NCBI GenBank assembly: GCA_951406725.2
Contig: OX597816.1
Location: 169,508,001-169,572,000 of the forward strand
From: Octopus vulgaris
Taxonomy: Eukaryota
Direction of reading: 5' to 3'
DNA: 64,000 bases
The position numbers and the translations under genes were made by a program. This document shows, in pieces, positions 2,895 through 56,431 of this stretch; the first letter of the stretch is position 1; every line of letters starts with the position of its first letter. Below the pieces are notes generated by a model that saw only the letters and a list, made by a program, of their open reading frames with translations, was not told the origin of the DNA and made no database searches.

Positions 2895-4820
2895 ACTGCG
2901 CCGGTCACTGCATCAACCAAACTCTCTTAGACCTAATGTAATCTCTGACTAGGTACGACGTGTGCTTCGGGTCGTTGTTAAGCTGGAAAGTTCTAGATCG
3001 GCCCAAATGCTTTCGGGCGTATGGAAGTATAGTCTTATCCAATATTTCTAGATAGGACTTACTATCCATAATGTCATTGATTCGGATAATAGGACCGACG
3101 CCTTTTCCAAACATGCACCACCCACATCATCATACTTCCACCACCGTACTTAATTGTACGTCGGATGATATTCTTCGTCTAGACGCCTTCTTACATACCT
3201 CTTGCTATCACTGTCGAACAAGTTGAACTTTGACTCGTCCAACCACAACACATTCGACCAATCTTTTGGACTCGAATTCATATGCTCTTTTGTGGACTGT
3301 ATCTGGGCACGTCGATTTTTTAAAGAAATGTGTGGCTTTTTTGCGTGAGACTCTTCCTACAAGTCCAAGTTCTTTGAGGCGAATTTTTTATGGTGGACAC
3401 TCCAATGGTAAGTCTCTTCGATTTTGCTCACAGAAGTTATTTCGTGTTAAAGTTGTCGTATTTGTTGCATTACACGCTTCCGTTTTCTTGTTTTTGCTTT
3501 TCGATCGTCACTTTGCACATTATCCTGCGTTCATTTTGTGATTATTTTCACCAATCTGTTCTATTTCATTTTGACAAAATTTCGTATTTTAGAAGTTATT
3601 TCGTTTCAAAGTTGTATTTGGGTAATTTTAACCAATCAACGACGTGTATTCAGTTAAAGAAAGCTACTGCTGTTTGCGATAGTAATCAAAAAGCAACAAC
3701 TTCCGGGTCGTCTCTACTAAATGTCACTATTCTGTTGTATTTCATTTTTGTTTAGAGCCTGTATTGCATACTAGACGTTTTGTTTGCTTTTCGATTGCTT
3801 CTTTGTACGTTTGCATTTTTACCACTCGCACAAAGAGGCGATCGAAAAGCAAAACAAACAAACAAACAAACAACAAATAAAAAAAACAAAACAAAGCGTG
3901 TAATATGCAACACAGGCAGTAAACAAAAATATGATAGAACAGAGTGGTGACATTTAGTACAGACGACCCGGAAGTTGTTGCTTTTCGATTATTATTGCAA
4001 ACAGCATTGGCTTTCTTGAACTGAATACACGTCGTTGATTGGTTAAAATTACCCAAATGCAACTTTAAAACGAACTTCTTAAATACGAAATTTTGTCAAA
4101 AATGCTGACAGTAAACCGTGTTCAGCGTGAGAAATTACACGAGTTTACGAAGTTTTAAACAGTTTAGTTAAAAGAAAAATAATAATTATAATAAATCTGT
4201 GAGCGAAACTAAAGAGATCTTGGTAAGTTCATATTTTTGCCTAATTTCTTTTAAAACGTCAATAGCGGTCATTTTTCGTTTTTTTTTTTTTTAAGGACAG
4301 TCTATGAATGTATTTATCTATTCTAACCGTTGTTTTTCTTGCTTGCCCATTAGTTTCTTTATAAAAACGGACAGCATTGTGGACGGCTGTTTTAGAGCAT
4401 CCAGCTTCGTTTGAAATAGGTTTATATGACCATTTCAGCCTACTAAGCTGAACGATCATCGCTCTGGTATCTGGTGTTAAGTTTTGTCTCTTACCAATCC
4501 CAACTATTAAGTAACTTAAAAATTGTAATAGCATACAAATTACCTTATTTTTATAATAGTCAATAAGGCAAAAAAATATATATGAAATTTTGCAAATTGT
4601 TCCTAAATTAAGTGTCCACGTAAATTACGCAAAATAAGGTTTATTTTTAATTTAAAATTAATGTGTTGACTTTACGCTGTAAAGTTGCATACTATTTTAA
4701 AGCACGTGAAATTATCTTTATTTTTATATACATTTTAATTCACAATTTACAACTTGAATATATAAAAAATGCCATTTTAACATTAGTGTACTAGCGTTCT
4801 TAAATTAAATGACGCCACTG
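2895..4820 (-). mobile_element. Tc1-family DNA transposon, transposase pseudogene, 3'-truncated and interrupted
   Basis: TA|CAGTGGCGTC terminus at 4820; N-term GKRQNLTPDTRAMIVQL..GCSKTAVHNAV (4259-4534); RLKELGLVGRVSRKK; GVGPIIRINDIMDSKSYLEIL..FQLNNDPKHTS (2905-3114); frameshifts and stops. Confidence 0.9.
3414..4220. mobile_element. Non-autonomous fold-back DNA element inserted in the Tc1 ORF
   Basis: TGGTAAGT duplicated at 3406-3413 and 4221-4228; imperfect TIRs (CTCTTCGATTTTGCTCACAGA / TCTGTGAGCGAAACTAAAGAG); internal palindrome ~3569-4104. Confidence 0.8.
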
Positions 4821-19199: not shown

Positions 19200-20109
19200 T
19201 GTTTATATGTATTGGTTCTTGAGCCATTGCTGCGGAAGGTGGAGGCACTAGTGGGTGCGACGCATGATCTTTGGTGGGGAAGAAAAGCTACGGCGTATGC
19301 GGATGACAGCTCCATCATCGTGGCGGATGAGGGCTAGCTTCCAGTGGCGGAAGAGGCCATCAAAAGTTACGAGGCGGTGGCAGGAGCAAAGGTTAACAAG
19401 GACAAGACGGTCGGTGGGCAACTCGGCACCTGGAGGGGAAAGCCGATGGCGTCCAATAATGTCGTGGGGCGTTGGACGAAAGGTCCTGTTAAGCTGCTCC
19501 GAGTCCGGTTTGGTCTGGACCTCCAGACAGATAAAAATTGGAGTGAGGTGACCGGGTTTGGGTGGACGTTATCCTTGCTAGAGAGTGCGGAGGTGGTGCA
19601 GATGTTTATAGCATCAGTTATCATCTACCGTCTGACCTTGGTGCCTTGCCCCGATTTGTGGCTGAACAAGTTGGAGAGAGTCATTTTCCGCTTTTCGCGG
19701 AAGGGAGGAAACCTCTTGTGAAGCGCTCTGTCTTCTACCAGAAACCGCTACAGGGTGGATTAGGGATACCTTGGAAGAAAATGCGAAAATTCGCGTTAAG
19801 GTTGAGGCACTTCTTGCTTTACCTGGATAGAGAGCAGGTGTGGTCATTGCATGTCCGGTTCTATCTTCAGCAGTTAACGTCCTTAACGGACATTGGTACA
19901 TGGATCAAACAGAGACCTAGGCTGGGGGACTGGCAATTGGAGTGTCGTCAGGCACTTCAGCTATTCTCTCGGGCGGGCAATGCCGGCAGCAGGAGTTCCA
20001 CCTCGGATTTTTATAGCAGGTTGGTGGAGTATATGTTCGAAGACGCCTGTTTGTCTGTCCTCGTTCGTCCTCTCTTTGTAATGCCTGTATGGCAAATTTT
20101 AATGAAATA
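19200..20109 (+). pseudogene. Tx1/L1-type LINE ORF2 (RT) fragment with internal deletion and 3' tail
   Basis: LYVLVLEPLLRK..AYADDS..YEAVAGAKVNKDK..GGLGIP..ALRLRHF; ends ATGCCTGTATGGCAAATTTTAATGAAATA joined to SINE A. Confidence 0.88.
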
Positions 20110-44010: not shown

Positions 44011-44029
44011 CGCAACCGTATTATATATA

Positions 44030-44260
44030 TTTCTTTATTGCCCGCAAGGGGCTAAACATAGAGAGGACAAACAAGGACAGACAAAGGGATTAAGTCGATT
44101 ACATCGACCCCAGTGCGAAACTGGTACTTTTATTTATCGACCCCGAAAGGATGAAAGGCAAAGTCGACCTCGGTGGAATTTGAACTCAGAACGTAACGAC
44201 AGACGAAATACCGCTAAGCATTCCGCCCAGCGCGCTAACGTGTCTGCCAGCTCGCCGTCT
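44030..44260 (-). mobile_element. SINE family B, full length
   Basis: Reverse complement of family consensus. Confidence 0.9.
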
Positions 44261-44611
44261 TATATAGCGACAGGACATTCCCCAATTCGGTACACACACA
44301 AACACATACGCACATAAACATCCACACCCACACACCGCACGCACGTACACGTACACACCCATACGTACAAGCATACATATCACACACACACACATATTGT
44401 TCTAATTTAGGCCAGTTTTGAGGATAGGTGCTCAGTCGATTCCTGCAAGATTGATGTTTTATATGTACTTTATTTTTATCGACTTCGGTGAAAAGAAAGG
44501 CAAAGTCGATCGGGGCGAGATTTGCTCTTAGAATACAAAGAGAAAGAAAAAAAATACCACCCATTGCACAAGGCTCAGACACTTCTGCCATTACATACAT
44601 ACATACACACA

Positions 44612-52439: not shown

Positions 52440-52790
52440 ATTTCTTTTATTTTATTCGTTTCAGTCATTTTGTCTGCAGCCATGCTGGAGCACCGCCTTT
52501 AGTCGAGCAAATCGACCCCAAGGACTTATTCTATCGGTCTCTTTTTCCGAACCGCTAAGGTAAACACACCAGCATCGATGTCAAGCGATGTTGGGACACA
52601 CACACACACACACAAGCACACATACACACATATGTATATACGACGGGCTTCTTTCAGTTTCCGTCTACAAAATCCACTCACAAGGTATTGGTCAGCCCGG
52701 GGCCATAATAGAAAACACTTGCCCAAGGACTGAACCCGGAACCATGTGGTTCGTTAGCAAGCTACTTTCCACACAGCCACTCCTGCCCCT
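52440..52790 (-). mobile_element. SINE family A with small deletions
   Basis: Family motifs. Confidence 0.85.
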
Positions 52791-52899
52791 ACACTGATAA
52801 GTTGCTGCTCAAATCACGGCTTTAATAGAAAGCATTTATTCAAAGTGTTATGCAGTGTTATAGGTGCAGGAGTGGCTGTGTGGTAAGTAGCTTGGTAAC

Positions 52900-55126
52900 G
52901 GTTGCTTCTGCGCATGTGCGAGTCAGTGTTGTGTTTGGCACTGAAGCGGTGAAGATGTGCTATTGAAGCCGTCTTGAATTGAAAACTTTGGAAGCCCCAT
53001 GTAAGGTAAGATTCTGTTTTCTGGGTCCAGTGGGAGTTTTTGTTGAGAATTGTTTTTTACAGGCAGGAAGTCCTACTGGATTCAGAATTCTGATTCTGCC
53101 GACATGTGGCAAATATATTTTTCTCGCTGAGAAAATTTTTGGGGGCGTATCCGTCTTCAATAAATTGAGTAAATATTTTTCTCACGTAATTGTGAGAATT
53201 GTATTGTGCTGTGAAGAACTTTTATGAATTGTGAAAACTACTACTTCGCAAGAAAATTATAAAAATAAGCCACTATTGGATTACCTTTCGGACCCATTTT
53301 TGTGGAGGTTGTGTTGCAGTTGCGGCGTTCCAGGTTCAACCCAGGCCGGGAGTACCGCAAGGCCAGAATATTTTTGCTGTGTTTTTTCTGTTTATTAACT
53401 TTCTTTTGAACTTCATTTAACCCCCCCTTTTGTTTTTTTCTTTATTGCGACTTTCCGTTGATTTCTTCCCTTCTGTTGTGCTTTCTCCTTTTTGTTTTTT
53501 CAAAAATCTATCAAATTTTATTTGGACTTTTGAACTTTTTTCTTCCTGCTTTTTGAGTTTAATTTGAATATATTTTAAAAAAAACATGGCAATGAAAAAT
53601 AACAAAATTTTGGAGTGGGAAATCATACCACCTAAAAAGTGGTTAAAAGACCGTGAAGATAGGACGGTGGTGTTGAGAACCTACACCAAGGCACTCGACA
53701 CCATCGCCCTATTCGAAAAGACGGCAATTGAGGAGGAGTTGGAAGAGTATTTGCCAACAATTAAATTCATTTCCAGGGGTGTCAAATATGCAACGGTGTG
53801 GTTGCTATTTGACACCCCTGAAGAGGCTTGCAAATTTGCTAGCAAACCCCTGGAGGGTAAGGAAATCTTATTCCTGCCCACGTACAAAAAAAAGAAATTG
53901 ATGAAAGCTTGGATTTGCGGATTGCCACCCGACATAGAACCCGAGTGGATAGAGGAGACTATCCGCCGGGGTCTGGGTGACAGCGAAACTAAGCTCCTCA
54001 ATGTAAAAGTTCTTCCTGCGGCTGCTTGGGTTGGGTCAAAAGCAATTTTGACCCTGTGGACCCAATCAGCCAATCTGGTTCTTCCAGATTTTTTGAAAAT
54101 GGCCGGGTGCAGGTACCCGGTGATGCTTGAGGGTCGCCCCCCTAAGTGTCATCGGTGCTTGGAGTCCGGCCACATAAAGAAGAACTGTCCTCGGGAACAA
54201 AATAGGATCCCGGAACAGTTAAGTAAAACCCCTCTAGAAGAGGGAACGATAACGGCCGAGAAAGCAGATGACTCCTCAAACAGAGGCCGAAAGAGGAAGG
54301 TGAGCAACAATGGGTGCTCACCAAAGGATAATAGGGATGAGGAGAGGAAGGCGAATCTTCCAGCCACGGAGGAGACGCACCCTCCCTCAGTTGAAAAGGG
54401 GAAAAAAAAAGAAAAAGCGAAAAAAAAACGGGACATTACCGGCTGTCAGTGTAGCACCGGAATGTCCCGGAACTACGTCGGTTGGGGTTGTGCCACCGAC
54501 AAGAGAAGGAATACCGTAGGCGGGAACTGTGCCGCCAACGAAAGAACTGAACGTATTGGTCCTCTTCTATAGAGGAGGAGAAATTGAAAAAGTGATGGAA
54601 GAGCACTACAAGGGAGCACCTTTAGCCTTCACACAGGACCCCGAATGGCCTCCGCAGGTAGCTGTGGAGGCCGTGGCGTTCGACGTGACGCTTGGGCTAA
54701 AGGAGCTCAATGAAGATTATAACTTGGTCCCGGGCGACGCGAACTCGGAACTTGATTACGTTCTGAGGGAGGCGTGGTTGATGGTGGAGGGCGCGGGCAC
54801 AAGCTATTTCGAGGACGATATGTATTATTAGTAATGGACTTAAGTCCAAAAATTGAAAAATTGTAAGAGGATTAATACCTCGTTTTGTATTAATAATGGA
54901 CTGCTAAGTCCAAAAATTGGAAAAATTGTAAGAGGTTTAATACCTCGTTTTGTGTTTATCTTTAAAAAGAACAATGTTTTAGAGAAGCGAAAGTCGGCGG
55001 GCGCTTTTTGTCTTCTCCCATCCTTATCATCTTTCTTTCATTATCATTCACCTCATTAATGTCCTCGTCCAGCCCGCAAAGCTAACTTAATCTGTGTACT
55101 GCCTTTATGGCAAATGTTTTGAAATA
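52900..55126 (+). mobile_element. ORF1-only (HAL1-like) non-autonomous Tx1/L1-type retroelement
   Basis: 15-bp TSD AAGTAGCTTGGTAAC (52885-52899, 55127-55141); ~690-bp 5' UTR, ORF1, ~300-bp 3' UTR ending GAAATAAA; no EN/RT. Confidence 0.85.
53586..54831 (+). pseudogene. LINE ORF1-like nucleic-acid-binding protein with CCHC zinc knuckle (328-aa open frame; ancestral ~415 aa)
   Basis: WICGLPPDIEPEWI..LPDFLKMAGCRYPVMLEGRPPKCHRCLESGHIKKNCP (CX2CX4HX4C); probable frameshift in A-runs ~54400-54428 and TAG at 54517 before the in-frame 54529-54831 segment. Confidence 0.85.
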
Positions 55127-55855
55127 AAGTAGCTTGGTAACCAACCACATGGTTCCGGGTTCAGTCCCACTGCGTGGCATCTTGGGCAAGTGTCTTCTGC
55201 TATAGCCCCGGGCCGACCAATGTCTTGTGAGTGGATTTGGTAGACGGAAACTGAAAGAAGCCTGTCGTATATATGTATATATATGTGTGTGTTTGTGTGT
55301 GTGTGTATGTCTGTGTTTGTCCCCCAAGCATTGCTTGACAACCGATGCTGGTGTGTTTACGTCCCCGTCACTTAGCGGTTCGGCAAAAGAGACCGATAGA
55401 ATAAGTACTGGGCTTACAAAGAATCAGTCCCGGGGTCGATTTGCTCGACTAAAGGCGGTGCTCCAGCATGGCCGCAGTCAAATGACTGAAACAAGTAAAA
55501 GAGTAAAGAGAGTGGGATAGAAACCAAACAAATGAGTTCGCAAAGCGAAATTCTAAACTACATAACCATGCCGGTTCACCCATAGTTTTGTATCGTCGTT
55601 GCAGTTGTGGCTGTTATTTACCGACGTTGAACTAACTTAGGGTAATATTCATTCATCAAACACATTAAATTACGTATGAGATGAAAAACAAATCCAGTCA
55701 GGAAGATCAGTTTTGATTAGAACTAGGAACGGCAGAAGCTTGTCTATCTTCTGATACTGCGTGCTCTCAGCTAATTTTTAAAAAAATGTCAACAATATAA
55801 CAATATTCTCCACAAAATATGTGAATATATAATTAAGTTGCGTGGAGATAATTAA

Positions 55856-56087
55856 AAGGCGGCGAGCTGGCAGAAACGTTAGCACGCCGGGCGAAATGCG
55901 TAGCCGTATTTTGTCTGTCGTTACGTTCCGAGTTCAAATTCCGCCGAGGTCGACTTTGCCTTTCATCCTTTAGGGGTCGATTAAATAAGTACCAGTTATG
56001 CACTGGGGTCGATATAGGCGACTTAATCCGTTTGTCTGTCCTTGTTTGTCCTCTCTGGGTTTAGCCCCTTGTGGGTAGTAAAGAAAT
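55856..56087 (+). mobile_element. SINE family B, full length with 16-bp flanking duplication
   Basis: AAGTTGCGTGGAGATA at 55835-55850 and 56095-56110. Confidence 0.9.
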
Positions 56088-56431
56088 TGTTTTAAAGTTG
56101 CGTGGAGATATCGCTAGAATGCCTATATAAAGTATACAAACATATAAACACACACACACACACATGTATGAGTGCAACACGTATACTAGCATATGCATAC
56201 ATACATACACTAGTTGCGCGCACACATACACACATATATGCCGTGACATGAAGCAAGCACCTAACTTCAAGGCAAATAGTCAGATTCTCAAACAATTTCA
56301 TTAGCATAATCATCTGAGGTACCCGTGTAATTAGATTCATTTACCATCGTATTTTGATTAATTTTTGTATGCATGTTGATTTGTATGTAAGACCGTTTAT
56401 CGCTCATGTGTGATATAATTAATGATAGGCG

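Follow-up and report, generated by a model that had tools for sequence, protein, structure and literature searches.

The 2227-bp unit described here is one copy of a young multicopy LINE family that has ORF1 and no ORF2, that moved as it stands, and whose copies are inserted at a single position within the head of a very common SINE. This family, which we call family A, very probably depends for its copying on ORF2 protein supplied in trans by two-ORF LINEs, themselves probably of the Tx1 clade, as judged from sequence comparison. The copy was found in a 64,000-nucleotide stretch of Octopus vulgaris DNA (contig OX597816.1, positions 169,508,001 to 169,572,000 of the forward strand; hereafter the window). 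An initial annotation of the window had recognized an ORF1-only retroelement at this place, and missed its main feature, the site-specific insertion into the SINE head.

The features of the locus are collected in Table 1. The exact 15-bp copies that bound the unit and its long 5' UTR were found as annotated initially. The single zinc-knuckle ORF1 does contain one CCHC motif, but the frame is broken in this copy; the break falls at the same A-run in many copies, where assembly error and slippage give the same picture, and an unbroken ORF of 409–418 aa is present at 10 of 84 loci. The 3' UTR is short, as had been noted, but it does not end in AATAAA, since the last two A's of this motif belong to the target, and a poly(A) tail is absent. 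Consistent with the reported lack of endonuclease and reverse transcriptase coding, comparison of partner ORF2 with the 2227-bp unit gave no match better than E=0.34, revealing no trace of ORF2. The first 250 nt of the 5' UTR are 96–98% identical to the 5' ends of another ORF1-only family, family B. The same ORF1 was also observed with several 5' ends (window 52900–53160; loci L073, L089 and L092), pointing to exchange of 5' UTRs, and families A and B share a 5' end although their ORF1s are only 48–65% identical. Contigs of four runs over the locus include joints that skip the unit, and any empty SINE would explain them.

Table 1. Features of the family-A insertion and related sequences, in window coordinates
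Feature	Position	Strand	Remark
ORF1-only non-autonomous LINE, young family A, full length	52900..55126	+	2227 bp
5' UTR, 686 nt	52900..53585	+	one of several exchangeable types
ORF1, 414 aa in unbroken copies	53586..54831	+	frameshifted in this copy, A-run near 54398
Two predicted tandem RRM-like folds	53628..54140	+	model residues about 15–102 and 100–185, copy L092
Single CCHC zinc knuckle	54144..54191	+	Pfam zf-CCHC
3' UTR, 295 nt, with 65-bp tandem duplication and shared tail, without poly(A)	54832..55126	+	
65-bp tandem duplication in 3' UTR	54826–54953		
Predicted 4-bp stem with 5-nt loop, in tail common to two-ORF partners	55100..55112	+	weak covariation
5' portion of host SINE head (target, outside the element)	52862..52884	+	95% to positions 5–42 of an empty SINE copy of the window (L001), duplication counted
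15-bp target-site duplication, 5' copy	52885..52899	+	exact match to 3' copy
15-bp target-site duplication, 3' copy	55127..55141	+	exact match to 5' copy
Remainder of host SINE	55142..55513	+	94.7% to empty copy
Degraded ORF2 remnant of partner clan, 5'-truncated, internally deleted	19200..20109	+	ends in same tail; older site variant from 20110

The same ORF1-to-3' UTR junction was found at at least 80 unlinked loci with unrelated outer flanks, so the unit was retrotransposed as it stands, just as the initial annotation had proposed. The exact 24-nt 3' end of the unit occurs 217 times in the genome (control, 0), and the last 400 nt show a median pairwise identity of 0.985 (30 loci, 435 pairs). 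Among the best 40 of 3,348 genome candidates scored, six copies are full length (this one and five at 96–99%), and 34 match from position 340–343 on, with other 5' ends. ORF2 was detected behind a family-A ORF1 at one of the 70 loci scanned, and this one is a chimera (L073, oriented 4250–4700; G000:C4 near 127.356 Mb) within a tandem array, in which family-A sequence (5' UTR, ORF1 and the larger part of the 3' UTR) leads into the end of a partner ORF1 and its ORF2 with a 98% join; either a deletion or a template switch could have produced it. Thus the unit is neither a single copy nor one whose relatives all carry ORF2, an outcome for which the initial annotation had allowed.

The 15-mer at the ends of the unit belongs to the head of an abundant SINE about 400 bp long, which explains its 12 near-matches in the window where 0.16 were expected. 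One copy of this SINE is split by the unit, with the first 38 bases upstream of the unit and the rest after the second 15-mer. The allele of the 15-mer present on both sides of this copy was found in none of the nine other SINE copies listed and at one of 53 parsed 3' junctions, namely that of this copy, indicating that here the 15 bp were truly duplicated. The target-site duplication annotated initially is therefore real, but it duplicates part of a SINE head and not unique DNA. At 80 of 84 unique loci the tail is followed by the SINE from its position 28; at one it is followed by the duplication and then another element, and three lack the tail, the chimera being one of these. The target 9-mer stands directly after 201 of the 217 exact 3' ends, and of the remaining 16, all nine inspected (those among the first 100 listed ends) have the same site with one changed base. 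As the query contained no SINE sequence, the fixed site is not a selection effect. The initial annotation had suggested a search for copies with the same junction and different duplications; multiple copies with that junction exist, but they are inserted at one SINE site.

The SINE behind the unit has a median identity of 0.938 (30 loci), compared with 0.941 for the nine empty SINEs of the window; the SINE halves thus diverge like empty SINEs, which identifies the SINE as target and not as cargo. The duplication is mostly 9–18 bp long. At 53 parsed loci, with 27 loci left out for want of a parsed 5' junction and four for want of a parsed tail, the 5' and 3' duplications match over at least 13 bases in 27, over 9–12 in 20 and over fewer in 6. 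In several subfamilies the 5' letters track the subfamily and not the local site, suggesting that transcripts may start inside the target of the source copy. ARAGORN called no tRNA in the window, and Rfam assigned the host SINE to no meaningful family and did not call its head a tRNA. By its promoter-box likeness the SINE head looks tRNA-derived, and the insertion apparently falls between its two promoter boxes. The host SINE carries a 7-base motif named for CORE/Ceph domains in the accessible text of PMC5786205. An older host-SINE copy (window 52450–52790, minus strand) lies about 70 bases upstream of the interrupted SINE.

Pfam detected zf-CCHC alone in ORF1 (E=0.006, below the curated cut-off), and a PDB sequence search with the ORF1 profile returned zinc knuckles only. 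A structural model of the open copy L092 reached pLDDT 71–89 over the RRM-like block and stayed below 50 in the C-terminal half. Its best fold matches are the La RRM (Z 8.8, rmsd 2.4, 82 aligned) and Mip6 RRM3 (Z 7.9, rmsd 2.7, 75 aligned); mammalian L1 ORF1p is absent from the 50 fold matches listed, which is no evidence by itself. As a lead, Atlas look-alikes of ORF1 are CCHC and ZCCHC3-type RNA-binding proteins. With RRM matches at Z 7–9, ORF1 is predicted to be a type I ORF1p (RRM plus CCHC) and not of the Transposase_22 type. Type I ORF1p is tied to Tx1 in non-mammalian animals in the accessible text of PMC5203782. A word-based homolog search with ORF1 yielded two proteins. Of ten profile matches looked up, the six with names are from Octopus sinensis, O. 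bimaculoides, O. vulgaris and Argonauta hians, placing related ORF1s in three Octopus species and Argonauta, and the family-A ORF1 is 64% identical to an O. sinensis protein. ORF1s of this clan are also listed as host proteins in octopod proteomes (P0001, P0052, P0054, P0055, P0056, P0060 and P0067), one of them under an unrelated gene name.

Over codons 11–265 at 84 loci, pN/pS is 0.80 for private changes (in one copy) and 0.29 for shared changes (in three or more copies; Fisher p=3e-6), while in the C-terminal third the values of 0.85 and 0.49 do not differ significantly (p=0.07). Pairwise dN/dS of ORF1 among copies, a comparison already recommended by the initial annotation, is 0.24–0.37. 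This shows that ORF1 is under purifying selection in its N-terminal two thirds. The family-A ORF1 is only 28–30% identical to the ORF1s of the partners (about 23–32% over the RRM–CCHC region, a range that covers every fetched two-ORF locus with a comparable ORF1), which indicates an old lineage and not a fresh deletion. In an ORF1 tree, a lead given its 21 rows, midpoint root and long branches, A and B cluster in a branch separate from that of the partners (96/99 support), and the partners are joined by a third kind of ORF1-only element, type C. The position of type C suggests that ORF2 may have been lost more than once.

Two-ORF elements of 5.1–5.7 kb occupy the identical SINE position. They were found by way of the ORF2 remnant in the window, among the best 40 of 2,270 relatives scored. 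Their ORF2 has Exo_endo_phos, RVT_1 and zf-RVT domains, and its closest solved structure is human L1 ORF2p (E=7e-66). Copies with an open ORF2 of 1140–1150 aa are present, and in one of six fetched copies both frames are open (488 aa and 1150 aa). Several partner families share the site, and the youngest is 96–99% identical within itself, like family A, so that the two are of similar age. Ten ORF2 homologs that were looked up are unnamed or misassigned and include no named Tx1 reference. Their APE endonuclease, reverse transcriptase, C-terminal zinc-binding domain, relation to L1 and repeat targets, together with a predicted type I ORF1p, indicate that the partners, and family A by descent, probably belong to the Tx1 clade. 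In an alignment of 16 ends, drawn from both ORF1-only and two-ORF elements, the last ~30 bases are shared, and BLASTN of the unit against an open two-ORF copy aligned the last 36 nt only (78%, E=0.035). The predicted stem in this tail has 94.6% of cells paired in 14 distinct tails, with one compensatory change, and its covariation is not significant (38 of 500 shuffles as high). Because they share both the site and the 3' tail with family A, the two-ORF L1/Tx1-type LINEs are its likely candidate helpers in trans.

Sister two-ORF families (L172–L183; RT 73–78% identical to that of the partner, ORF2 up to 1138 aa open) end on (TC)n at 8 of 12 loci; three of the others have another tail and other sites, and one is interrupted. 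This group was rejected as the parent of family A, as its ORF1 is 24–28% identical to that of A (at least 140 residues aligned) and its sites are others. The sites of the sister families amount to target switching within one genome. In the window, a second SINE type was also observed (55850–56094, plus strand; similar copies at 2426–2657 and 44029–44264), flanked by an exact 15-bp duplication (55835–55849 and 56095–56109). Over 26 bases it matches the 3' UTR of the two-ORF partners at 96%, and its tail is similar. This SINE is a candidate passenger of a relative of the LINE clan, with a site other than the SINE head.

A looser pattern of tail plus target retrieved 933 ends at the main variant of the site and 224 at a second variant, and 61,403 and 4,291 empty SINE heads were counted for the two, with patterns that are not quite equal. 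Of the first 30 ends at the main variant, 19 have ORF1 without ORF2, eight have ORF2 and three have no detected coding, ORF1 being scored as present within 1.5 kb of the end; the corresponding numbers for the first 30 ends at the second variant are 17, two and 11. The second variant has older host SINEs (0.82 versus 0.89; 17 and 24 hosts passing the motif filter). Among family-A copies with a parsed tail, the six that have diverged most are all inserted in this second, older variant, and none of 210 inspected young ends is. Both time-layering and a shift in specificity could explain the copies in the older variant. The ORF1-only families span about 30–99% ORF1 identity. Mixed tandem arrays were found as well: at least seven ORF1-only family-B ends lie 2.0 kb apart beside one two-ORF element (L190, L191; G000:C1 223.69–223.71 Mb), and there are further tandem pairs of B with A, B with a partner and a partner with A.

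The target choice of LINEs is set by their endonuclease. In the mechanism that we propose for family A, the partner endonuclease would nick the SINE head, the partner reverse transcriptase would bind the shared tail with its small predicted stem-loop, accepting any RNA with that tail, and the RNA would be copied in place by target-primed reverse transcription. ORF1p would coat its own RNA in cis, which would account for the conservation of ORF1. The duplication would re-create the target, allowing tandem stacks of later elements to build up. With more than 60,000 intact SINE heads, the landing space would be large and mostly harmless. Since the cut presumably falls between the promoter boxes, each insertion would disable one SINE copy, and the share of exact-match heads disabled in this way would be about 1 in 60.

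It might be argued that the true driver is a two-ORF parent with the same ORF1, either unsampled or extinct but recent, and that the sampled two-ORF families only share the site. Scoring covered only the best 120 of 15,196 ORF1 candidates and 134 of 44,959 RT candidates, and the published octopus annotation gives 80 L1-Tx1 consensus sequences in its accessible text (PMC13282606), far more than were sampled here. However, the ORF1s of comparable two-ORF loci all show the low RRM–CCHC identity to family A given above, A and B have their own well-separated ORF1 branch, and the one join of a family-A ORF1 to an ORF2 is a chimera, making such a parent unlikely. A single deletion of ORF2 after insertion, or a segmental duplication, fits the anatomy of a single locus only; with the same internal junction at so many unlinked loci with unrelated outer flanks, and with ORF1 under selection, its probability is negligible.

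Two further explanations concern the SINE. If the SINE were part of the element and the composite moved as one piece, the end at the same SINE position at 80 of 84 loci would be expected, and so would the target-like first bases of many copies, which follow the subfamily and not the local site. Yet the SINE halves vary among loci as much as empty SINEs do, older copies sit in a different SINE variant, unrelated two-ORF elements use the identical site, and nothing but the duplication stands between tandem units; we regard a composite as highly improbable. A tRNA gene could instead be the true target, with the SINE head hit by resemblance, an explanation that concerns the origin of the specificity and is compatible with trans-copying into the SINE head. 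The head does look tRNA-derived, by its promoter-box likeness. DNA transposons targeting tRNA genes and a LINE targeting tRNA-gene spacers are known (PMC3706591, accessible text). But every inspected flank leads into the SINE body or another element and never into a tRNA gene, in a sample too small for rare cases; the site variant changes with the SINE subfamily, and neither ARAGORN nor Rfam calls the head a tRNA. A tRNA-gene target is thus very unlikely, and trans-copying by the two-ORF partners into the SINE head remains the preferred reading.

L1 and HAL1 have a poly(A) tail and no fixed target, whereas family A has a fixed target, lacks poly(A) and is 28–30% identical in ORF1 to its partners. 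The comparisons that follow draw on the accessible text of the papers cited. HAL1 (half-L1) of mammals codes for ORF1p only, arose more than once (PMC5753468, PMC5786205) and is non-autonomous like family A. It derives from mammalian L1, however, and its ORF1p is of type II (Transposase_22; PMC5203782), while that of family A is predicted to be RRM-like plus CCHC. The label HAL1-like used initially holds only as an analogy: family A works in the manner of HAL1 and HeT-A, but its ORF1 type, its tail and its target set it apart from HAL1 proper. Besides the vertebrate L1 relatives named initially, ORF1-only LINEs occur in insects (HeT-A, Ag-Sponge; PMC5786205). With ORF1, without endonuclease or RT, and amplified as such, family A falls among the ORF1-present non-autonomous LINEs (HAL1, HeT-A, Ag-Sponge). 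HeT-A with TART in Drosophila (PMC2173066, PMC5786205) resembles the present case in pairing an ORF1(Gag)-only element with an RT-coding partner at one kind of site, in mixed head-to-tail arrays. HeT-A and TART differ in belonging to the Jockey clade, in residing at chromosome ends with a host function, and in their very similar Gags with shown recruitment of the partner Gag.

The crocodilian Tx1-Mar LINEs and SINEU-3 are inserted in Mariner-N4_AMi, which flanks 90% of the passenger copies, with a duplication of about 16 bp and tandem insertions around it, and the helper was inferred from the shared target (PMC4494074, accessible text, which likewise attributes the target choice of LINEs to the endonuclease). 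In both cases a Tx1-type LINE and its non-autonomous passenger use a common target that lies within a different abundant repeat; the SINEU-3 passenger, however, is a non-coding snRNA-derived SINE and its host a DNA transposon, whereas family A codes for ORF1 and its host is a SINE. Tx1L, Keno, Kibi, Koshi, Dewa and Mutsu (PMC4494074, PMC3706591) are also APE-type LINEs with a fixed repetitive target, and (TC)n, on which the sister families end, is the reported target of Kibi. The accessible descriptions of these six include no SINE target and no ORF1-only derivative. A repeat annotation of O. vulgaris (PMC13282606) reports 13 recently active L1-Tx1 families with 421 insertions and a mean of about 5.4 kb, a size like that of the partners here. 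Target sites, nesting and ORF1-only forms do not come up in its accessible text, and the families described here may sit unnamed in its Zenodo library. We found no description in the open literature, cephalopod repeat papers included, of ORF1-only L1/Tx1-type elements with a SINE head as their fixed target; Repbase and Dfam lay outside this search, so such elements may be catalogued there. The ingredients are each known, namely ORF1-only LINEs and Tx1 LINEs on repeats with a passenger, and it is their combination on a SINE head that we did not find described.

More speculatively, and with considerable doubt, the elements may form a long-lived three-layer system of octopods, in which Tx1-type LINEs of the SINE head tracked the turnover of SINE subfamilies, several ancient ORF1-only lineages outnumber their helpers and survive by virtue of an ORF1p that the helpers use, in the manner of HeT-A and TART, and the insertions disable SINE promoters. 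The diverged family-A copies in the older site variant, the wide span of ORF1 identity among the ORF1-only families and the related ORF1s in Octopus and Argonauta would be compatible with such a system. Time-layering alone could explain the tracking of SINE subfamilies. With the present results, a SINE head joins the targets known for site-specific LINEs, and the few ORF1-only LINEs on record gain a site-specific member of L1/Tx1 type. For annotation, the ORF1s of the clan recorded as host genes in octopod proteomes are a practical issue, and the non-random nesting of LINEs in SINEs seen here affects repeat dating. The tight specificity of an APE-type element with candidate helpers is a lead for targeted-insertion tools. 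The clan offers natural tests of why a non-autonomous LINE keeps ORF1, whether for packaging in cis or for service to a helper, and of how an APE endonuclease changes its target, with sister families that use two SINE variants or (TC)n.
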